From an uncultured bacterium (lineage in GTDB: Bacteria; CAYUVA01): DNA of 53,284 bases. The DNA is taken from the NCBI GenBank assembly GCA_964448115.1, contig CAYUVA010000034.1, forward strand, positions 1 to 53,284. Reading direction: 5' to 3'. This document shows positions 6,685 through 25,724 of the stretch, one piece after another (position 1 is the stretch's first letter; each line of letters opens with the position of its first letter). The notes under the pieces were generated by a model. It saw only the letters and a list, made by a program, of their open reading frames with translations, had not been told where the DNA came from and ran no database searches. The translations under genes and the position numbers were made by a program.

Positions 6685-8535
6685 ATGAGGGTAAATGATG
6701 CTTCATGGCGCTTGCTGCTACTGTTTTATGCTGTATTGCTTGTTATAAGCATCGTTTGCCCTATCACTAGGCATGGTTACGCCTTATGGCAAGTCGCCGC
6801 CTTGGATGGCAACATAACCGTCACCCCGACCAGCAGCCCCACCTCGACTCCCACGGCGGGTCCGTTTCTGGGCACCGCTTTTGCCGAGCTTTACTCATCG
6901 TTCGGCGGCAGCCCAGAAGAGGGCGTAGTCGAGTTCTACTGTTATGTCGATGAGAACATGAGCCGCATCGTAACCGAGGATGGCTATGAGCCGTGGCTGG
7001 GAGTGAATCGCGGATACAGGCTGACTGGACAGACCGGCTGGTGGCTGGTCGATTTTTCGCCATTCAAAGGCTCTGCGCCGAACCATCCCTACTGGGTGCG
7101 CTTTTTCACTCCCATTGAGCAAGCCGAGTTCGAGGGCTTGATACCAAACAACCTTGAGTATGCCGGCGAGCCGACATACCTTCACCTGACCCAGGCTCCG
7201 CTTCCGCCATCAGCTATCTCTGCTCAGCTTGCAGAGAGCGGCATCCTTCTGACCTGGGTGCCTAATATGGCGCATCAGTATTTTATCTATCGCTCAAGCA
7301 CTCCGTCTGGAGCGGATAACGGGCGCTCTGACGGGTTCTATGAGCTATTGATAGGGGGACTTTATGGGGATAGCTATCTCGATGAGGATGATATGGCGCC
7401 TGGACGCACATATTATTATGTGCTCATCGCTCAGGATCATTACTTTCGCTTCAGCAGCCACAGCAAGGAGGTAAGCGCCACCTTCTGGTATCCCACGCCA
7501 ACCCCGACGGTTACAGACACGCCGACCCTAACTCCAAGCGCCACCCCCAGCCTTACCCCCAGCGCCACGGCTACCTCATCTCCCACCGGCACACCGAGCC
7601 TGACGGCGACAGCATCTCCATCGAGCACCCCATCGAGCACTCCCAGCATAACGCCGACCGCAACCATGACTCCGAGCATAACGCCGACCGATACAGCCAC
7701 AGCTACCCGCACCCCGACTCGAACCCGCACACCCACTATGACTCGGACTCCGACCGCGACGCCGACCAAGACCGCTACCCTGCTCCCCACTCGCACCCCC
7801 TCGGTTACGCCAACCGCTACCCTTTACCCCAGCGCCACGCCTAGTGCAACTGCAACCATTACGGCTACATCGCTCCCCACCTCAACAGCCACTGCTTCCC
7901 CGACCGCGACGCCGACCACGACCTTGACTCAAACCCCGACCATCACGCCGACCTTGACCCCGGAGCAGATCCCGCCCCCAGTAATAGACCCACTGCCTAC
8001 ATTTAGCGTTGGCACATGCACCACTATTGGCTGGAGCGATCCCAGCGGGCTGGCGGAGAGCTTCTGGGCGGAGTGCAGCCCGGATGACCAGTTCACCCTA
8101 CGCATGATAAGCGATTGGATCTATTCGATGAACTATACATTCTGCCAGCTCGAGGACTCGATGCGCTACCATTATCGTGTGCGCTCATCGTATCATGGCA
8201 GGGCGAGTTCCTGGAGCGAGTCGGTCAGCTCCATGCAGGACTCCAAGCCCCCGCGCATAGAGGCTGCTGGGTTCTTTGACAGCGTTGTAGGCTCACAATA
8301 CGGCGGAACTTTGATCATCCAGGCGATCTCTGGCGAGCCTTACATGGAGCGGATCAGGGTCTATATTGACGGTATCAATAGCGGTGCATCCCTGGGAAGG
8401 ATCGGTGAGTCATTGTATATACTTATACTACAGTTTCCACCGAGTGATCCCGGTATGTTGTTTATTGAGCTTCAGACAATGGACCTGGCTGGGAACAGCG
8501 CGTTCGGCTGGCCTTATCTTTGGGTGGATGAATAG
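6685..8535 (+). CDS. Secreted modular protein: FN3-like domains, long Pro/Thr linker, C-terminal WPY domain
   Basis: N-terminal hydrophobic signal, LTW...IYRS...YYYV FN3-like pattern, PT linker at about 7492-7962, C-terminus AAGFFD..GG..WPYLWV. Confidence 0.85.
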
Positions 8536-8538
8536 CTG

Positions 8539-9384
8539 ATGTTTATCCCTTTTTTCATTTCAGGCGTGCTTCACGGTAACACGCCACATGAGCACACGCT
8601 TCTATATACCCTGCTCAAGCCATTTTCCAAGCCAAATAGCCGGCTACGCAGGCTATCGCTTTATATATTCGCCCGCTTTATCGAGCTGCCCATGCTGCGC
8701 CTTGCATACCATGTTTGTAAGGGTAAGCTGGCTTGGATAAACAAGATTCCCTTGGCAAACAAGCTGATAGGGAGGCTTATCGTATATTACATCGGCAACT
8801 ATGGCGATACGGCAAAGCCGGTGCCTTATGAGCAGCTTTTATCGATACTTGATGACCTTGGAGGAGAGATGGCGGTAGGGAGCTGTCGCTGTCGCCTGGC
8901 AGTGCGAGCTTGCGATCATCCGCTGGAGACCGATATCGTGATCAAGATAGGCGTTAAGCCCTTCAGCAAGGCGTTCCCCGATGATTACAAGCCGGCCGGT
9001 AAGGATGAAATAATAAGGATCATCACCCACTGCCATGAGCTTCGCATGTTTCACCTCGTATTCGTGCACTGCCCGGTCAACCTGGACAACGAGTATGTTA
9101 TCTGCAACTGCTGCACCTGTGGATGCATCCCCTACATGGTGCATCGGCGCTTCGGGCAGAGAAACCTCCCCTTGCTCACCTACTATCGGGTGGAGATGAT
9201 TGATGGCAGGTGCGCTAAATGCTGGGATTGCCTTGAGGATATTTGTCCCTTCGATGCCAGGGTGATGGGCGATGATGGGGTGGTTGTCCAGGGGTGTATG
9301 GGCTGCGGGTTGTGCCTGTCGGTCTGCGAGAACCAGGCAATGCGCCTGGTCAAAGTAAAGCCGATCATTAAAAAAATTGATTGA
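8539..9384 (+). CDS. 4Fe-4S dicluster-binding protein
   Basis: CRCR, ICNCCTCGC, CAKCWDC...CPF, CMGCGLCLSVC. Confidence 0.85.
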   Translation: MFIPFFISGVLHGNTPHEHTLLYTLLKPFSKPNSRLRRLSLYIFARFIELPMLRLAYHVCKGKLAWINKIPLANKLIGRLIVYYIGNYGDTAKPVPYEQLLSILDDLGGEMAVGSCRCRLAVRACDHPLETDIVIKIGVKPFSKAFPDDYKPAGKDEIIRIITHCHELRMFHLVFVHCPVNLDNEYVICNCCTCGCIPYMVHRRFGQRNLPLLTYYRVEMIDGRCAKCWDCLEDICPFDARVMGDDGVVVQGCMGCGLCLSVCENQAMRLVKVKPIIKKID

Positions 9385-15603: not shown

Positions 15604-18213
15604 CTATTCGTTGCATATCAGGTACGGCCAGGTGGGGCTTTTGCTTGTGCCTAGTATTGCCCTGAACTCGATGAGCAGCCTCGTTGAACTCCCCGGCGCA
15701 TCGATAGCCGTGCTGTACCCAAAGATACTATCTTGAGGCGCAAAGTCCCCGTTCTCGCCATCATCGTTGAGCCTGATCCCCAGCTCCCTGCCATAATAGT
15801 AGGTGGCGATATAATCGGCATTTCTGAACAGGAATACAGCAACCATAGTCAGCCTCCCCCCATGCTGAGCGGTTAGCGAGGTATCCCAGTATCCAGCAGC
15901 ATCAATGGAGAAGAAATAGCCAGCGGTGGGGGTTGGAGTGAAAGTAGGCTCGGCGGTATATGAAGGGTTCATGGTCGGGGTCGGCGTGTTGGTCGGTGCA
16001 GGAGTGTGGCTACCGGTTGGCGTGGGCGTATCGGTTGGCTCTGGCGTCCAGGATCCGGTCGGGGTCGGCGTTGCGCTATAATCGGGCGTATTGGTAACCG
16101 TTGGTGTTGGCGTCGGTGTCGGCGTCTCCGCGGGGAGCGCATACCCGCAGATCCCTATATCATCGATGTTCCAGCCGGTGTACTGGAAGATGCCACCCCC
16201 GGTCTTCAATCCCCAGCGCAGCTTGACGAATCCCCTGCCCGCTGCCTGTTCGGTTATATCTATACTTACCTCGTTCCAGGAATCATCGGTGATCTCGCCG
16301 GATGAGCGCCAGACCTGTACCCAGTTGCCCCCTGAGAAAACCTCGACCGTAGCCTCATCTGAGCCTTGGCAGTTGAGCCAGCGCCAGAAGATAAGCTCCA
16401 CGGAGACCATGTCGGTAAAATCGAGCGCCGGCGTGGTTACATAGCTGGTCGTGTTTGGCGTATAGTTGCCGTTCAGGTTGTTACCATAAACATTGGGTCC
16501 GGTATGTCCGCCGTCCGGGTCCGGATTGCCGCTCATGAAGCCACCCCCCTGCCCCGTGGGATGACCGAAGGCGAAATCCCCGCTAACCGTCCAACCCGGA
16601 TTAAAGTTAAGATTCCAATAAACCCGCGGGCACTGATAGACCGACCTGGTGATGAGCAAGGTTACCGGCACCTCGAGATGAACCCCCAAGCCAGCGGTGA
16701 TGCTATAACGCAAGGTGGCTAGAGTCCCCTCAGGGGCGCTCGGATGGCAGACGATGCCGATAGGCTGCGCGTTCCCCTCTGCACCCATGGGGAGATTGGC
16801 TATGCTAATGTTGGCATCGAGCACGGTGATATATTGACTTTCACTGCTTACACGAGCGGTAGGATTCATCACATTATACAATGAGTTATTCTTGAAGCGC
16901 ACGGTCAGAAGCCCCTCCTCCCCGGGATCCACCTGCCCATCATCATCTCCACTGCCCTCATCGAAGATCTTCTCCTTCACATCGAGGAAAGGACCAGCGA
17001 TCTCAGCCAAATATAGGCTCGGCTCGAAGACCTCCATGATAAGCGGAATGCGAGCGCTATCCGGTGGGATGAAGGTGCTGCCGACCTCGAAGGTAACTCC
17101 GTAGGTCTTCGGCTTGGCGGTCTGCTCGCCGTACCACCAGTCGTCCGCATCGCCGTTGGTGTTATATATGACTCCCATGCGCGGGTTGCCATACTCGTAG
17201 TTATTGTCCTTGCACATCTCGGACATGAATTGCATGAAAATATCGTGATCCGGGGTATCGCTGTTGATATATCCCCAAGGGCAGAGCAGTAGCCTGCCGT
17301 AGCTATGGTAAGATAAAGCCAGCTTGAAGTCGTGAGCCAGGCACAGGTCCCTCACCGCCTGGTTCTCCGGCTCAGAGAATGCGCTGGGACCTCGATAGGT
17401 CTCGTCTCCTGTATAAGGGCTGGAACCGCTGTTGTCATAGCCCCACATGTATCCCCAGTTGCGGTTGTTATCCACTCCCCAGGTGCCATCGCCGTTGTTG
17501 CGGCAGTTCTTGCGCCAACCGGTGGAGCCGTTGGCCACCCGATTATGCCCGTCCGGGTTCATCATGGGAACGAACCAGAGCTGACGCTCGTTGACCAGAA
17601 AGGTCGCCCTCTGGTCGCTGCCGTAGTTTTCAAGCAGCCAGTTCATTATATAAAGCGGTATCTCAGGGGTGATGATCTCGCGAGCGTGATGACAGCCGAC
17701 ATAGAGCGCCTCCGGCTCATCTTCCTGTACATCCACATTATCCGAGACCTTCATGGCCCAAACATCCCTCCCCTCGTGGGTTGTGCCCAGGCTGACCAGC
17801 TTTGCCAGATCAGGGTAGTTGTTTGCCAGCATCTGCATCTCCAGCAGCATCTCGTTGTAGGTGTGATACTCGCCGAGATCCCCCTTCTCGTAAAGCTGCT
17901 CGGCAGCATAATATACATCCTCGTAAAGAATATAATATTCATCGAAGCCCTCGGAAACTAATATATCCAGCTCATCCTTTACGATAACTGCATCGAACCA
18001 CTTGCACGGCTTGTAGCCTGCTATATCGAGCGATCCAGCCAGCGACGATTGCGTAAGCTCCCTATCCTCCAGGTTGAAGCGAACCAGCATCTTGCCGGTG
18101 AGGGCATGAGAGGAGCCGGTGAGAATCAACATCGCTATTAAAACAGTAAAACAAGACAGCCCAAGCCTGCGTGATCGAGTCTTTACCTTTATTGCACGAC
18201 TAAGAATGCCCAT
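15604..18213 (-). CDS. Secreted M14 zinc carboxypeptidase (carboxypeptidase T-like) with accessory beta domains, PT linker and C-terminal WPY domain
   Basis: HHARE, NPDG, WRKN, NRN, SYHSYG, TFEVG; signal peptide ending SSHA; C-terminus AAGYWDT...DDGENGDF...WPYL. Confidence 0.93.
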
Positions 18214-18588: not shown

Positions 18589-18618
18589 TTGACTTCTGAC
18601 AGTCTTCGAAAATATAAT
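18589..18618 (+). promoter_or_regulatory. Putative sigma70 promoter for the clostripain gene
   Basis: TTGACT, 18-nt spacer, TATAAT. Confidence 0.65.
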
Positions 18619-18664: not shown

Positions 18665-20380
18665 ATGAACAGGAAAAGATTATCCACGGGCATTATTTTT
18701 GCTTTTATCATCATTCTCGCTGGAGCATTTCCTGGGTGTGATAAGGATGATGATGACAATGATGGCGCCCAGTGGACTTTCATGGTCTATATGGCTGCTG
18801 ACAACAGTCTCTCTTACATGGGCGTTTTCGATATCCTGGAGATGGAGAAGGTCGGCTCCACGGACAAGGTGCACATCATAGTGCAGGCTGAGTTCGCTGC
18901 CGGGCAACCTGGAGTGCCTGCCGAGGGGACTCTTCGCGGGCGCATTACAAAAGGAAGTAGCACTACCGGCATCACATCCGATCTCCAATCTTTGGGCAAC
19001 AAAGACATGGGAGATCCGGCTACTTTGAGCGAGTTCATCAGTTGGACAGCGGATAACTACCCTGCTGAGAAGTATGCACTCATCATCTGGGATCACGGCG
19101 GTGGCTGGAAAGAGGGGAGAAAGGGCGCTTGCGAGGACCAGACGAGCGGAACCTGGATGACCCTCCCCGAGCTTAGACAGGGAATGGAGGACTCCGGGGT
19201 GCGCCTCGATCTCATCGAGTTCGATGCCTGCCTGATGGGCATGTACGAGGTCGCCTACGAGTTTGCGGGACTCGCAGATGTTATGACCTTCTCCGAAGAG
19301 GTGGAAGCCGGCGAGGGAGATCCCTATGATTCCATACTCGCTATATTGATCGATGATCCAGGCATGTCGGCAGAGGACCTGGGGAAGCACATTGTTGAGG
19401 AATTTTACAAGTTTTATCAAGGTGGTCGCTCCAGTGCCACTAAAAGCGCTGTCAGCCTTTCCTACATGGACGATCTTCACCCCAAGATACAAGATATGGG
19501 AGCTAGGCTAAGCATCGCCCTGGAAACCTACCGCTCGCAGATCGAACAGGCACAAAGAGACACCCAGGAGTATGCCTATCCATCGAATATCGATCTCGGA
19601 CACCTGGCATCATTGCTCAGGGCTTCGCCAGACTCGGGAGTAGCGAATAATGCAGCAGAGATCTATAACATGATAAATCAAGGTGAACTCATTATAGCAA
19701 ATCGAGCATATAGCGGCACTGCCGATAGCGATGTGAGTAGATCTAGCGGCTTAGCCATCTGGTTCCCGGCACCAGGAGAAGCCTCCAGAAGGGAGCTGGA
19801 GGAGTACTATAACCTGAAGATCAACCAAAGCTCTACGACTTGGCTACAATTCCTGATCGATTTTTTATCCGGCTCAACGACCGAGGATGCCGTAGGTCAA
19901 TGGCGTTGCCGAATCTATTGGGATACTGACTCGGATCTTGATCTGTATATAGGGGAGATAGATCCCTATAATCTTTATGCACCCTGGATGGGTCCATCCA
20001 CGCCCAACGGGTTGTTCAGCGCCGATTCGGTCGATTCCGGCGTCTCCCAGGAGGCATACTATGCCAACGACTATGTCCAGGCAGGAAATTATTATATCTT
20101 GGTAAACTACTACGAACACGGAAGCACAAATTATGCCAATGTTTATTTCGAGTTCTACGATGACTACTGGGGTGGTTACGAGAAGTACGGTCCGGAATAT
20201 ATGAACCTGGCGTATCCGCTTGATCCTTACGGCGATCCTTATAACGACGAGTGCAGCGACTGGTGGTATGTCGGTTATGTACAGAGATCCTCTGCTGGTC
20301 AGGCGCGTTTTATCCCCTATAATGGCGAGCCGACCGGGTTTTCTGGAACTTTAAAACGAAGACAAAAGACGGCAAACTAG
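18665..20380 (+). CDS. Clostripain-family (C11) cysteine peptidase lipoprotein with YfaP-like C-terminal domain
   Basis: WTFMVYMAADN, IWDHGGG (catalytic His), FDACLM (catalytic Cys), lipobox-like FPGC, WDTDSDLDLY; RBS AAGGAG. Confidence 0.92.
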   Translation: MNRKRLSTGIIFAFIIILAGAFPGCDKDDDDNDGAQWTFMVYMAADNSLSYMGVFDILEMEKVGSTDKVHIIVQAEFAAGQPGVPAEGTLRGRITKGSSTTGITSDLQSLGNKDMGDPATLSEFISWTADNYPAEKYALIIWDHGGGWKEGRKGACEDQTSGTWMTLPELRQGMEDSGVRLDLIEFDACLMGMYEVAYEFAGLADVMTFSEEVEAGEGDPYDSILAILIDDPGMSAEDLGKHIVEEFYKFYQGGRSSATKSAVSLSYMDDLHPKIQDMGARLSIALETYRSQIEQAQRDTQEYAYPSNIDLGHLASLLRASPDSGVANNAAEIYNMINQGELIIANRAYSGTADSDVSRSSGLAIWFPAPGEASRRELEEYYNLKINQSSTTWLQFLIDFLSGSTTEDAVGQWRCRIYWDTDSDLDLYIGEIDPYNLYAPWMGPSTPNGLFSADSVDSGVSQEAYYANDYVQAGNYYILVNYYEHGSTNYANVYFEFYDDYWGGYEKYGPEYMNLAYPLDPYGDPYNDECSDWWYVGYVQRSSAGQARFIPYNGEPTGFSGTLKRRQKTAN

Positions 20381-20495: not shown

Positions 20496-21611
20496 ATGGT
20501 TGAAAACAGGGGAAAAAACAAGAAGAAAACCTTCCTGTTCACAGGCGTACCTGGATTTATAGGTAATCGTTTGCTTGAGGAGGCTGCGCCGGATGCCGAC
20601 AGGATCTACCTGCTGGTGCTTCCTGAGATGATAGGCGATGCACAGGCACTGATCCAGGAGCTTAAGCAAAAAAAGCAGCTCGAAAAGGAAAAAGTGCGGA
20701 TCATCGAGGGGGATATCACCGAGCAGGATCTCGGCCTGGACGAGATCACCAAGCGAAAGGTTAGAAATGAGGTTACCCATTTCTTTCACCTCGCTGCCTT
20801 GTATCGTCTCGATGTCGATGAGCAAAATGCCCGCAGGGTTAATATCGAGGGGACAAAGGTGATCTTGGGATTCCTGGAGAGCATCGAGCAGTTGGAGCGA
20901 TTCCTTTATGTATCTACATGCTATGTAAGTGGCACGAGATCTGGTCGCATATTGGAGGATGAACTGGACAAGGGGCAGGGATTCAAGAATTTCTACGAGG
21001 CGACCAAGTTCTTTGCTGAACTGGCTGTACGCAAAAAATTTGAACATATCCCGACTACCATAGTTCGTCCAGCAATAGTGATCGGAGACTCAAAGAGCGG
21101 ACAAACCATCAAGTATGACGGCGCCTACTATGTCATAAAGATCCTGCACAAAGGCAGGTTTTTCATATTGCCAAAGGGGAGTTCGGCAAAGATAAATGTG
21201 GTTCCAGTGGACTTCGTGGCAAGAGCAATCCGATTCCTTGCACAGCATCCGGAAACGGTAGGTATGACCTTCCACCTGGCTGATCCTAATCCACCCAGCG
21301 CGGAGCGATTCGTTAAATTGGTGGCTAGCAAGTTGAAATCTAAGGTTCCGATTATACCGGTAAAGAAGGATCTCCTTGAAAAAATCTTGCAGATAGATCC
21401 TCTAATGAAGGCGGTCGGTTTCTCCACTGAGCTTGCCGGATACTTTTTATGCGATGCCGAGTATGATACGACTAATGCCCAGAAATACCTTAATCCAGCG
21501 CGGTTGGGATGTCCACCCCTGGAGTCTTATATCGATGCTATAATCGAGTTTTACAAGGCAAACCCACGCCTTAGAATAAAGGAGTATAAGAAACTTGAGA
21601 AAAGTGCTTGA
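20496..21611 (+). CDS. Extended SDR oxidoreductase (thioester-reductase / male-sterility-like)
   Basis: TGVPGFIG, GDIT, HLAA, VSTCYV, YEATK, RPAIVIG, VPVDFVA. Confidence 0.9.
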   Translation: MVENRGKNKKKTFLFTGVPGFIGNRLLEEAAPDADRIYLLVLPEMIGDAQALIQELKQKKQLEKEKVRIIEGDITEQDLGLDEITKRKVRNEVTHFFHLAALYRLDVDEQNARRVNIEGTKVILGFLESIEQLERFLYVSTCYVSGTRSGRILEDELDKGQGFKNFYEATKFFAELAVRKKFEHIPTTIVRPAIVIGDSKSGQTIKYDGAYYVIKILHKGRFFILPKGSSAKINVVPVDFVARAIRFLAQHPETVGMTFHLADPNPPSAERFVKLVASKLKSKVPIIPVKKDLLEKILQIDPLMKAVGFSTELAGYFLCDAEYDTTNAQKYLNPARLGCPPLESYIDAIIEFYKANPRLRIKEYKKLEKSA

Positions 21612-21636
21612 CAAGAACACGATACTGAATTATATT
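21608..21636 (+). promoter_or_regulatory. Near-consensus sigma70 promoter
   Basis: TTGACA (21608-21613), 17-nt spacer, TATATT (21631-21636). Confidence 0.75.
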
Positions 21637-21702
21637 TGTATCGTTGTCTTAGATTGGTCGATTATGAATAAACCGAAATATTAAGCTTTAGGGAGGTTTT
21701 AA

Positions 21703-23202
21703 ATGATGGACAAAAAGGGGTTATCCAAGCTAACAAAGGTGGCTACGGGACTCATGCTACTTGCTCTGGTCGCATTCTTCATGGTTTCTACCCAGACTTT
21801 CGCCGAAAAGGGAAAGCTCAAGGTGATGAATACCAGTGAGGATCAGGCGATAAGCGCAAAGGTATTCAACTACCTGAAGGGACTCTTCGCCCCCACTACC
21901 ATGAAGAGGGATCTGGTAGCAAAAAGACCACACAATATGGTACTCAAGGCGCTTAGCGAAAAGAACCTTGAGGGTGTCAAGAGAACTAAAAACATCATCA
22001 ATGAGAGCAGCTTTGGCATCACCAGCAAAACTGCCAATCACGGCGGCGCTGCCTATTCATGGACCAAGTCATACTTGGCTTCGGATCTTACTTTGACCAA
22101 GGCAACCGAGGTGGACATATCATCGCCCAAGTATCCCTGCACCCCGATAGAGCCGGATCCGGTAGATGACGAGGAAGATGTTACTTACAAGAACCTCACT
22201 CTCTATTGGAGCTGCGCGGTTACAGAGCCGGTTGTATATTCGGTGTATCTTGATACCAACGAGACCCCAGAAACCCTTTTGGCAGAGGATCTGCACGAGC
22301 CATTCTACGGTCCCATCGAACTTGAACCGGATACCGACTACTACTGGCAGGTTGTCAGCACCACCGAGTCGCTCGATGAGGCTGAGAGCGAGATCTGGCA
22401 CTTCAAGACCATGGCTCGTCAAGACCCGCCCTTCATCAACCTGGCAGGATACTACATGACTCATGTAACACAGGCTGAAGGGGGCACGCTGAACCTGATC
22501 GCATGGGTAACCGATGAAAACAATGATGTGGATTATGTGGAGTTGATGTATCAGGGCGCTCCGCTAGATCCCAGGATGTACCTGGTGGATGATGGTGCCC
22601 ATGGCGACTTCGATCCCGGAGATAACATCTATGGCATGGAGATACCAGTTGGACCAGGCATACCGAGTGGATTAGAAGTGCTGCTTATGCTCCAGGCTTA
22701 CGATCAATTTGGACATATTACCGCGCTGTGGCCATTCCTCGAGGTCTGGGAACCGGCAACATCAAAGGCTGGATGCGAGAGATACGCTTCCTATATGAAC
22801 GCTGAGATAGCCATCAAGCACGAGTTCGATTTCAAGCGCCTGATGGATGAGGCGATCTCTGGCAAGGCAGCAACCGATGCTCCAAAGATCCTCCTTGCCG
22901 GCTACATGACCACAACCCTTTATACCGATATCGGCGGCAATATCACCCTGCTGGCAGCGGTCATTGATCCCCAGGGGGATACCAGCAGCGTGGAACTATA
23001 CTTCGACCACATGCCGACTGGTATTGCCCTCCTTGACAATGGCACACAGGGGGACTTCGGTCCTGGTGATAATGTCTATGGCTGGCAGTTCTTCCTGCCT
23101 GGTAACACATTCACCGAGTTCACCAGGATTCTACTGGAGATAAAAGCGATAGATAACCAAGGCAACGAAAGCACCATCTGGCCTTATTTCAAGGTTTACT
23201 AG
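21703..23202 (+). CDS. Secreted protein with an FN3-like domain and two tandem WPY domains
   Basis: Signal peptide ending TFA, YSVYL...YYWQV..S.IW.F.T FN3-like module, two copies of AGY..GG..D[DN]G..GDF.PGDN.YG..WP[FY]; RBS GGGAGG. Confidence 0.85.
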   Translation: MMDKKGLSKLTKVATGLMLLALVAFFMVSTQTFAEKGKLKVMNTSEDQAISAKVFNYLKGLFAPTTMKRDLVAKRPHNMVLKALSEKNLEGVKRTKNIINESSFGITSKTANHGGAAYSWTKSYLASDLTLTKATEVDISSPKYPCTPIEPDPVDDEEDVTYKNLTLYWSCAVTEPVVYSVYLDTNETPETLLAEDLHEPFYGPIELEPDTDYYWQVVSTTESLDEAESEIWHFKTMARQDPPFINLAGYYMTHVTQAEGGTLNLIAWVTDENNDVDYVELMYQGAPLDPRMYLVDDGAHGDFDPGDNIYGMEIPVGPGIPSGLEVLLMLQAYDQFGHITALWPFLEVWEPATSKAGCERYASYMNAEIAIKHEFDFKRLMDEAISGKAATDAPKILLAGYMTTTLYTDIGGNITLLAAVIDPQGDTSSVELYFDHMPTGIALLDNGTQGDFGPGDNVYGWQFFLPGNTFTEFTRILLEIKAIDNQGNESTIWPYFKVY

Positions 23203-23233
23203 GGTATCTAGTTACCGTAGATTGAACACTATC

Positions 23234-23272
23234 AGGGATCGGGTAAGGTACCACTTGCTCGATCCCTTTTTG
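23234..23272 (+). terminator. Intrinsic terminator
   Basis: AGGGATCGGGTAAG / CTTGCTCGATCCCT 14-bp stem with G-U pairs, followed by a T-tract. Confidence 0.85.
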
Positions 23273-23333
23273 TTTGATGTATTTTAGGATCGGAGCTAGG
23301 TTAAAATAATACTTACGAATGCGATGATAAACC

Positions 23334-25724
23334 ATGCAAGACTTCAGTCTTAATCTCGTCGAGTTCGATGCCATAAAAGGGATTCTATCCTCTTACTGCG
23401 CTTCCAGCTTAGGAAGGGGGCATGTTGACCAACTAGCTCCGTTGGCAAATATCTCTTCGATCGTCCACTTGCATCGCTGTGCTCAGGAGATGATCTACCT
23501 GCATCAAGATGGCAATGAACCGCCAATGCAGGGATTAAAGGATCTTAATGGAATACTGGATAGAGCATCTATCGAGGGTGCAGCACTCGATGCCGAGGAT
23601 TTTTCGGATCTCGAGAGCATGGTACTTGCAGGTCGCCGGCTGCGGAAGTTCATCCTCTCCCAGCAAAGGGAGCTGCCATTACTCACTGAAAGGGTGATGC
23701 CCGTTCAGGGGTTTAGTCATATTCTGCAAGAAATAAATCGTATCTTTGATGAACAATATAGAGTCAAAGATAATGCCAGTCCCCAGTTATCCAGGATAAG
23801 AAGACGCATCGAGAGCATCCAGGGCAAGATACAGGATATCCTTAATCGCTATCTCAAGGACTCCCGATATGCAAGCATGATCCAGGATGCCTTTATAACT
23901 ACCAGGGATGGTCGCTATTGCCTGCCGGTCGATTCGAGCTTCAAGGGGAGGATAAAGGGCATCGTGCACCAGGTATCCGCAAGCGGCGCTACTACCTTCA
24001 TCGAGCCGGAGGATATCGTGCCCTTGGGCAATGAGTTGACCGAGCTTGCCGAGGCGGAGGCTGATGAGATACACCGCATCATGGTCTCTTTGACCGATAA
24101 GGTCAGGGAAAACATTGATGATCTTAAAATTTTACAGCAAGCCTGCGCATGGCTCGACTTCAACAATGCCAAAGCGCGCTTTGCCAACGATTATATGATG
24201 AGCATCCCAAAGATGCAGGGATCGCCCGTAGTCGAGCTTAAAGGAGCACGCCATCCTTTACTGATAAAGACCAAAGGTTTCGGCGAGGTTGTGCCGATCA
24301 ATGTCATTCTGGGCAGGGCTTATCGATGCCTGGTGATAACCGGACCCAACACCGGCGGTAAAACAGTGGCGCTCAAGACGGTCGGCTTGCTCTGCACAAT
24401 GGCGCAAGCCGGGCTACCCATCCCAGCATCTCCGGATAGCACCCTGGGCATCTATGGCCATATCTTAGCCGATATCGGCGAAGAGCAGGATATCGTCCAA
24501 TCGCTGAGCACCTTCAGCAGCCATATCGAGCGCATTCGTGAGATAACCCGCAAGGCAAAGCCCGGTGCGCTTATCCTATTGGATGAGCTTGGCGCCGGCA
24601 CCGATCCCGCCGAGGGATCAGCGCTGGGGATCGCCATATTGCGTTACCTGCTTGCCAAGGGGGCGCACATAATAGCCACCACTCATCACGACTCACTAAA
24701 GGCGTTCGCTTATGCGGATGAAGACGCGGAGAACGCCAGCGTCGAGTTCGATCCCAAGACCCTGGAGCCTAAGTACAGGCTAAATATAGGTGTGCCGGGC
24801 AGGAGCAACGCCTTTATTATCGCCGAACGTCTCAGGATGCCATCTCAGATAATCCAGGATGCGAGGAGCCTAAAACAGATAGGCTCCACGGTTACCCAAG
24901 ACCTGGTCGATAAGCTGCAAGAGGACGCCCAGGAGCTGGAGAGGAAGGTCGCTGAGTATCGACAACGCCTGAAGGAACAGGAAAACGCGCAGCAGGAATT
25001 GAAGGAAAGCCTTGAGCAAGCTCGCATCGAGGCGGAGAGCATAATAAACAAAGCTAACCAAGAGGCTGCATCCATCATCGCCGATGCGATCGCCGAGTAC
25101 AAAAAAGCTCTAAAACAAGCATCACAGACTACATCCAGGCAACTGGAGCTAAAGATGCAAAGGCTCAAAGCGAAACACGAGGAAACCGCATCCGAGGCTA
25201 GCATGGCGAATACCCCAGCAGAAGTCCCCCAATATACAGATAGCCTCAAAGCGGGCGACTTCGCTGCCCTGAGGGGAAGCTCACAACCGGTTAAGATAGT
25301 AGAGCTTGACTATAAACAAGGCTATGCTGTGGTTTTAGCCGGGAGCTTGAAGATGAAGGTCCCTTATGAGCGCCTGGAGGCGCTGGATACAGGCAAAGCC
25401 GATGATGCGGAACAGCCTGATGCATCAAGAGATTATGAGCACGAGGGGGTGAGCCTGGATAGCGATGGTTTTTTGGAGCAATCAGGTACCAAGCTCAATA
25501 TCATCGGCAGGCGAGTCGATGAGGCGATCCAACTGATCGATAGATTTCTCGATCAAGCGCTGCTCGAAGGCTATGAGAAGGTGCATATCATCCACGGCTT
25601 GGGCGCCGGCAAGCTGATGCGGGGCATACATGAGCATCTTGCCGGTCAGCCTTTTATCAAGCGTTTCTATCAAGATACCGATGTTCCCGGCGGCGGTGGG
25701 GTTACCATCGTGGTTTTGAAGTAA
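23334..25724 (+). CDS. mutS2: Endonuclease MutS2
   Basis: SASGATTFIEP, ITGPNTGGKT, QSLSTFSSH, LDELGAGTDP.EG, TTH, C-terminal Smr domain IIHGLGAG...GGGGVT. Confidence 0.96.
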   Translation: MQDFSLNLVEFDAIKGILSSYCASSLGRGHVDQLAPLANISSIVHLHRCAQEMIYLHQDGNEPPMQGLKDLNGILDRASIEGAALDAEDFSDLESMVLAGRRLRKFILSQQRELPLLTERVMPVQGFSHILQEINRIFDEQYRVKDNASPQLSRIRRRIESIQGKIQDILNRYLKDSRYASMIQDAFITTRDGRYCLPVDSSFKGRIKGIVHQVSASGATTFIEPEDIVPLGNELTELAEAEADEIHRIMVSLTDKVRENIDDLKILQQACAWLDFNNAKARFANDYMMSIPKMQGSPVVELKGARHPLLIKTKGFGEVVPINVILGRAYRCLVITGPNTGGKTVALKTVGLLCTMAQAGLPIPASPDSTLGIYGHILADIGEEQDIVQSLSTFSSHIERIREITRKAKPGALILLDELGAGTDPAEGSALGIAILRYLLAKGAHIIATTHHDSLKAFAYADEDAENASVEFDPKTLEPKYRLNIGVPGRSNAFIIAERLRMPSQIIQDARSLKQIGSTVTQDLVDKLQEDAQELERKVAEYRQRLKEQENAQQELKESLEQARIEAESIINKANQEAASIIADAIAEYKKALKQASQTTSRQLELKMQRLKAKHEETASEASMANTPAEVPQYTDSLKAGDFAALRGSSQPVKIVELDYKQGYAVVLAGSLKMKVPYERLEALDTGKADDAEQPDASRDYEHEGVSLDSDGFLEQSGTKLNIIGRRVDEAIQLIDRFLDQALLEGYEKVHIIHGLGAGKLMRGIHEHLAGQPFIKRFYQDTDVPGGGGVTIVVLK

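Follow-up and report, generated by a model that had tools for sequence, protein, structure and literature searches.

A 499-residue open reading frame (ORF) at positions 21703..23202 on the forward strand of contig CAYUVA010000034.1, from an uncultured bacterium of the GTDB lineage CAYUVA01, encodes a protein, here called P0001, that we read with moderate confidence as a well-expressed, cargo-less member of a lineage-specific exoproteome whose proteins are tagged at the C-terminus with a shared domain, here called WPY. Within that reading P0001 would be a surface or matrix component, an adhesin or a spacer. All positions refer to the window, by which we mean the whole stretch of 53,284 nucleotides that was analysed, and the coordinates of the individual features are collected in Table 1. 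The case is built on a genome-wide survey of the WPY family, on the domain organization of P0001, and on the expression signals that surround its gene.

The WPY domain is widely used in the source genome (G000; 3.98 Mb, 86 contigs, 94% complete). A hidden Markov model (HMM) of 107 positions, iterated on the six-frame ORFs of this genome, found 198 copies in 161 ORFs, and in 139 of these ORFs the last copy lies no more than 5 residues from the C-terminus. The tails share the consensus S..WPYLxV with one or two further residues (E/D/Q), for the most part acidic or polar. By a crude rule, signal-peptide-like N-termini were present on 142 of the 161 WPY ORFs, as compared to 941 of 2484 background ORFs. 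The recognizable heads are diverse, and include an M14 carboxypeptidase, PQQ-like and BNR propellers, FG-GAP and beta-helix proteins, a PLD plus lamin-tail combination and a DMFA2_C-like domain. Besides P0001, 34 proteins carry at least two WPY copies (33 with two, one with four), and their linkers span 23-71 residues, one split pair excepted, often with a W/F-centred helix as in P0001. When the 20 shortest of these tandem proteins were scanned against Pfam, 11 had no family at all, and the remainder mostly carried binding-type modules (propellers, FG-GAP, BNR), not enzymes. Altogether 51 copies are non-terminal, 15 of them single internal copies and 36 the first of a tandem.

Sequence variation within the family follows position only in part. 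First and second tandem copies form partly distinct subfamilies, with the nearest neighbour of a first copy being another first copy in 18 of 36 cases and that of a second copy another second copy in 23 of 36. Two structural subtypes can be told apart by a D[DN]G..D..D loop, scored by regular expression: it occurs in 43 of 110 copies that are single and terminal and, among the tandem copies, in 17 of 36 first and 28 of 36 second ones, and in the remainder a shorter connection without the loop, such as LPVLD, takes its place. Measured against this background the architecture of P0001 is mostly not special. It has the tandem form with a helical linker, no PT-rich linker, and neither an enzyme nor a propeller as its head. 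Its gene stands out by expression signals that are the strongest in the family and are conserved, and by the closeness of both WPY copies to the family consensus.

A first-pass annotation of this DNA had described P0001 as a signal peptide, an N-region of no recognized type, an FN3-like module and two WPY domains, and each of these elements is borne out by sequence, HMM or AlphaFold2 evidence. The signal peptide was read from the sequence, and the AlphaFold2 model adds a helix over residues 4-31. The N-region that follows is basic within an acidic protein (isoelectric points in Table 1), matches no family in Pfam or NCBIfam and gave no usable match in the ESM Atlas; two short motifs within it, YDYxKSFFSP and STETDISRxxYPC, are kept by P0011, P0086 and P0103, which are full-length homologues. 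About a quarter of the mature protein was modelled without confident structure. The FN3-like module gave weak FN3-clan matches in Pfam (13.6-13.7 bits, under thresholds), and in the homologue P0103 it reaches the Pfam fn3 family (PF00041) with 26.5 bits against a cut-off of 25; similar modules are repeated 5-18 times as arrays in giant proteins, with fn3 scores of up to 125.6 bits. Both WPY copies were modelled with a predicted local distance difference test score (pLDDT) above 90 in the whole protein, and the second copy modelled alone gave 90.0. Together with the 51 non-terminal copies, these models fit the earlier proposal of a folded WPY module that is more than a cleavable tail. Similarly, the annotation had recognized no catalytic motif, and we found no catalytic family in P0001 in searches of Pfam, NCBIfam, PADLOC or PDB sequences.

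The expression signals named in the first-pass annotation are also there: the near-consensus promoter, the strong ribosome-binding site and a 14-bp terminator of the gene's own. The terminator hairpin (23234-23267) has 14 pairs, 7 of them G-C, around a 6-nucleotide loop, and is followed by TTTTTGTTTG. Its folding energy is -24.3 kcal/mol, as compared to -10.1 +/- 2.45 kcal/mol in 200 shuffles (z = -5.8), none of which folded equally well. The next gene downstream, MutS2, starts at 23334, and on the upstream side the -35 hexamer contains the stop codon (21609-21611) of an NAD_binding_4 reductase-like gene.

How rare such signals are was assessed across the genome. Promoter-like and terminator-like sites within 15-30 kb of the window showed no excess over shuffles (15 vs 18.0 and 11 vs 12.2, respectively). 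Genome-wide, 102 of 168 sites with at least 11 of 12 consensus matches sit 5-200 nucleotides upstream of the start of an ORF on the same strand, where about 12 would be expected by position; because of this enrichment the promoter consensus is meaningful in the source organism. GGAGG precedes 201 of 2570 ORFs of at least 150 residues, a lower bound given the crude choice of start codons. A promoter with at least 11 of 12 matches and GGAGG occur together in only 15 ORFs of at least 100 residues, among them a putative Hsp70 and a putative small heat-shock protein, judging by their N-termini. By a simple script, a hairpin of at least 14 bp with a T-run within 90 nucleotides was added to these two signals in just two of the 15, the WPY gene at 21703-23202 and a 150-residue secreted ORF on contig C33. 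The composite signals of the WPY gene lie within roughly the top 0.5% of ORFs. Its codon adaptation index (CAI) of 0.781 ranks 119th of 2562 and tops those of the 160 WPY ORFs, which adds weak support. In sum, the earlier view of an independently and strongly expressed gene agrees with these data, and P0001 is probably made in large amounts. As for the C33 ORF (G000:C33:17604-18056), its N-terminus resembles a signal peptide, its promoter matches the consensus at 12/12 positions, and it has GGAGG and a terminator-like hairpin of 14 bp, so that it probably represents another very highly expressed secreted protein.

In the collection searched the source genome stands alone in its phylum, and the relatives on offer share the domain level only. 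By domain profile (E <= 1e-10), five of 301 genomes bear WPY: G000, G022, G041, G191 and G209. A first look gave 24-62 candidates in each of the latter four, and 15 candidates per genome were scored. A search with P0001 of a library of 1.84 billion proteins gave 2457 matches at E <= 0.001, many of them via the FN3 module. Among the best 150 of these, 59 contain a tandem WPY pair, with the last copy no more than 5 residues from the end in 50 of the 59; when G000 proteins are excluded from the same 150, the tandem is C-terminal in 37 of 44. Judged from these matches, several organisms share the tandem WPY module as a conserved C-terminal unit. Metagenomes yielded four homologues of full or nearly full length. 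Three of the homologues are full-length, P0011 (516 residues), P0086 (502) and P0103 (439), with 34, 31 and 29% identity, respectively; one separate homologous-protein look-up returned P0001 itself as its sole match. On the metagenome contig L049 a 438-residue homologue (29% identity over query residues 110-499) lies among unrelated housekeeping genes for a GMC oxidoreductase, an epimerase and a dehydroquinate synthase. Its gene nevertheless has TTGACA-17-TAAAAT (11/12, with an upstream TG), AGGAGG, and an 11-bp hairpin with a T-run directly after the stop codon. Because promoter, Shine-Dalgarno sequence and terminator are all kept amid unrelated genes, the monocistronic strong-signal layout appears, in this one homologue case, to travel with the protein and not with the neighbourhood.

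The WPY domain has no Pfam family, and the AlphaFold2 model of the second copy is a generic Ig/FN3-type beta-sandwich. Foldseek with the single domain found nothing at E <= 0.001, and an exhaustive VIA-align search reached a best Z of 7.5, within that tool's 'common arrangement' range and with no family prominent; the best matches were accessory domains of glycoside hydrolases, sulfite dehydrogenases/oxidases and FN3 modules. A fold search with the whole-protein model returned generic tandem Ig/FN3 chains only. P0001 had no match among PDB sequences and none in PADLOC, and the tandem WPY module found only 'hypothetical protein' clusters in the ESM Atlas. Matches of the WPY profile to PDB ankyrin rows were rejected as spurious.

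The closest named family is NCBIfam NF041940, 'choice-of-anchor X'. P0001 matches it in two stretches with 31.1 bits (cut-off 25, E 1.4e-07), although the best stretches cover no more than model positions 3-20 or, in a second search, 1-20 of 37, and the second WPY copy alone scores 19.3 bits, under the cut-off. The same model matches 13 of 22 sampled WPY domains at E <= 1. The likeness resides in the D-rich loop, L-x-D-D/N-G-x-x-G-D-F-x-P-G-D-N-x-Y-G, which in both WPY copies of P0001 fits the model and which is a putative Ca2+-binding site. In contrast, the WPY unit comprises about 107 residues rather than 37 positions, and many of its members are without the loop. Furthermore, the second WPY copy itself ends the protein (WPYFKVY-stop) and no separate sorting signal lies downstream, unlike the separate C-terminal anchor signal that we take the name 'choice-of-anchor' to imply. 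A limited look at the literature on 'choice-of-anchor' and C-terminal sorting domains in uncultured bacteria found no description of the WPY domain or of type X.

Shared C-terminal Ig-like tags on large exported families define cell-surface organization, and the cargo of the type IX secretion system (T9SS) of Bacteroidota is the model case of a C-terminally tagged exoproteome. Like the type A C-terminal domain of T9SS cargo (TIGR04183, or Por_Secre_tail PF18962), WPY is an Ig-like sandwich of about 100 residues that ends many mixed Sec-exported proteins of one genome. However, none of 22 WPY domains matched TIGR04183 or Por_Secre_tail at E <= 1, neither family was found in P0001, and tandem and internal copies of WPY are frequent. 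The genome encodes four Omp85-family and six secretin-family ORFs in 4 Mb, and because of these the source cell is, by its gene content, diderm. No match to SprA or PorV was found in it, at 94% completeness. The SprA search itself works, since 71 of 221 genomes gave a match with it and 47 of these exceeded the cut-off; SprA matches were found in none of the five WPY-bearing genomes as compared to 71 of 216 others, a difference that is not statistically meaningful. TIGR04183 likewise gave no match in the source genome, in a search whose built-in controls gave no signal anywhere.

One WPY protein of the source genome (G000:C4:99847-100407; L061 6848-7408) is free-standing, with 186 residues that comprise a signal peptide and one WPY domain only, and its 130.8 bits are the second-best domain score in the genome. 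Orthologues with 39% and 32% identity over nearly the full length are present in two other WPY-bearing genomes (L062 8315-8869 and L063 6314-6805). A prepilin-like gene, 51% identical between G000 and G191, lies 3.4 and 2.3 kb away from it, respectively. The source genome has 14 prepilin-like ORFs in all.

From these features a working model can be drawn. P0001 would be exported by Sec and its signal peptide cleaved, leaving a mature protein with a basic, probably flexible N-segment of about 110 residues, one FN3 spacer and a C-terminal module of about 260 residues, in which two acidic Ig-like WPY beta-sandwiches are predicted to be joined by a short helical linker. The protein is probably located at the cell surface. 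WPY, whether single or tandem, would be the lineage's shared C-terminal 'address' module, carried by about 160 exported proteins that are otherwise unrelated (among them peptidases, propellers and PLD), and most likely sorts these proteins to, or retains them at, the surface of a cell that is diderm and in which no T9SS was detected. The basic N-tail of P0001 could bind anionic envelope or matrix polymers.

The first-pass annotation had gone further and cast P0001 as a hub or S-layer-like scaffold, in which WPY domains would self-associate, perhaps via Ca2+, the abundant and bivalent P0001 would form a lattice, and single-WPY enzymes such as the M14 peptidase would dock onto it. The comparison with genes for S-layer and other major surface proteins has some appeal, since here too the gene is monocistronic with a near-consensus promoter, a strong Shine-Dalgarno sequence and a terminator, these signals are conserved, and the product is acidic (pI 4.41 when mature), secreted and non-enzymatic; P0001 is moreover bivalent in WPY without an enzyme domain, retains the NF041940-matching loop in both copies, and has copies that rank 14th and 54th of 198 by family score. 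Known comparison systems are the SLH-bearing S-layer proteins and the Ca2+-dependent lattices of the RsaA type. However, P0001 is of modest size and has no S-layer family or SLH domain in Pfam or NCBIfam, which speaks against the S-layer-like identity; the one marginal SLH match in the genome lies outside it. The cellulosome scaffoldin offers a similar idea, that of many secreted enzymes sharing a C-terminal module and being gathered by a non-catalytic multi-module protein, but the putative WPY scaffold and the enzymes would share one module instead of bearing complementary ones, and P0001 has no Pfam match to cohesin or dockerin. A complex prediction for two second WPY copies scored 0.40 against a mark of 0.42, which weighs neither for nor against self-association. 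Bivalency is common in the family, as the 34 other tandem proteins attest, the four other WPY-bearing representative genomes gave no full-length orthologue, which a core structural hub would be expected to have, and the quarter of the mature protein modelled without confident structure sits uneasily with a lattice. We thus regard the hub as quite unlikely. Of the earlier overall interpretation, the secreted, non-enzymatic and strongly signalled protein is supported, and its special hub status is not, given how many multi-copy proteins there are and that among the 20 shortest as many as 11 lack any Pfam family. The boldest version, in which WPY is the address tag of an undescribed display system in T9SS-less diderms and P0001 is the abundant scaffold that docks about 125 single-WPY proteins via Ca2+-dependent WPY-WPY contacts, strikes us as just as improbable.

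A less demanding alternative is that P0001 is a plain modular adhesin or binding protein, its WPY domains being one more Ig-like domain expanded in the lineage, which serves as a spacer or binds glycans or proteins and has no address role, and its functional end being the conserved N-region plus FN3. The generic fold with its best matches to accessory domains of glycoside hydrolases and sulfite oxidases (Z <= 7.5), the internal and first-of-tandem copies, the binding-type modules of most tandem-WPY paralogues, and the failure to find dedicated machinery (in the SprA, PorV and TIGR04183 searches and in proximity to secretin or prepilin genes) all suit it. Nevertheless, a mere spacer is hard to square with the C-terminal placement in 139 of 161 ORFs and the conserved WPYLxV end, and terminal placement also prevails in other organisms (37 of 44); we judge this alternative unlikely, if less so than a hub. 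It is also conceivable that the terminal WPY is an export signal, read by an as yet undiscovered translocon or one of the six secretin systems, with P0001 as a major substrate or as an accessory or regulatory component. A diderm with six secretins and no detectable T9SS, the strict C-terminal position of WPY, and the free-standing 186-residue WPY protein, which in two distant genomes has a conserved pilin-like gene 2.3-3.4 kb away, would be consistent with this. However, WPY genes show no enrichment around the genes for secretins or prepilins, and tandem and internal copies are atypical of a pure signal, so that this is the explanation to which we give the least credence.

Several observations also weigh against the reading we favour, that of a well-expressed, cargo-less member of a WPY-tagged exoproteome. 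By profile search, a full-length orthologue is absent from all four of the other WPY-bearing representative genomes, where none of the best matches begins before profile position 128 and the ORFs that contain them are of unrelated size; this is the patchy conservation that the first-pass annotation had named as refuting its reading, although the collection has no close relative of the source genome. No conserved partner points to sorting or anchoring by WPY. Only 7 WPY genes lie within 10 kb of secretin or prepilin genes where 13.6 would be expected, and in view of the 51 internal copies WPY may be a simple binding or spacer domain. The low pLDDT of the N-region perhaps results from a shallow alignment (3 homologues), and a fold or activity may hide there. 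Among the signals that make P0001 a probably abundant protein, the promoter by itself is unexceptional because about 100 genes match the consensus equally well, and codon adaptation is a weak indicator in this genome, where the mean of 29 reference genes (0.752) is barely above the genome median (0.738). Finally, a scan for hairpins found no terminator for the upstream reductase-like gene, and because of this read-through and co-transcription of the WPY gene are possible, its own promoter and terminator notwithstanding.

The wider interest lies in the tag itself. It is carried by about 160 proteins (roughly 5% of ORFs) of a diderm in which no T9SS was detected, and it recurs in a few other deep lineages. 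For this tag the gene at 21703-23202 is the best experimental handle, being small, having no enzyme head, carrying both a terminal and an internal copy, and probably being abundant. If the tandem module does bind itself, a cell-wall polymer or a receptor, the localization of the whole exoproteome would be explained; otherwise the gene would simply encode a well-expressed modular surface protein.

Table 1. Features of the P0001 gene and of other WPY domains in the window. pI, isoelectric point.
Feature	Position	Strand	Details
Sigma-70-type promoter TTGACA-17-TATATT	21608..21636	+	-35 at 21608-21613, -10 at 21631-21636; 11/12 consensus positions matched
Shine-Dalgarno sequence GGGAGG	21691..21696	+	6 nt 5' of ATG
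Coding sequence, 499 aa (P0001)	21703..23202	+	mature form ~465 aa, 51.9 kDa, pI 4.41
Sec-type signal peptide, aa 1-34	21703..21804	+	K-rich n-region, hydrophobic 13-29, probable cleavage TFA/EK, no lipobox Cys
N-region, aa 35-146	21805..22140	+	basic (pI 9.7), no family, pLDDT <50 except helix 45-62
FN3-like beta-sandwich, aa 147-240	22141..22422	+	AlphaFold2 strands 149-236, 7 strands, pLDDT >90
WPY domain copy 1, aa 242-348, internal	22426..22746	+	ends WPFLEVW; 99.2 bits, rank 54/198
Inter-domain linker, aa 349-392 (44 aa)	22747..22878	+	predicted helices 360-367 and 377-386, pLDDT 52-69
WPY domain copy 2, aa 393-499, terminal	22879..23199	+	ends WPYFKVY-stop; 117.3 bits, rank 14/198
Intrinsic terminator	23234..23277	+	14-bp stem, 6-nt loop, T-rich tail
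WPY domain, single C-terminal, of neighbouring M14 carboxypeptidase (gene 15604-18213)	15616..15909	-	77.2 bits
Weak C-terminal WPY domain of 616-aa protein 6685-8535 (no Pfam family)	8248..8526	+	47.4 bits

Two further observations concern the neighbourhood of the gene. The 616-residue ORF at 6685-8535 is adjoined by one of 281 residues at 8539-9384, and both are without a Pfam family. A second promoter with 11 of 12 matches, TTGACT-18-TATAAT, is located at 18589-18618, directly 5' of a gene for a C11 clostripain-family peptidase (18665-20380), which has a signal peptide with a lipobox-like Cys and carries no WPY domain.

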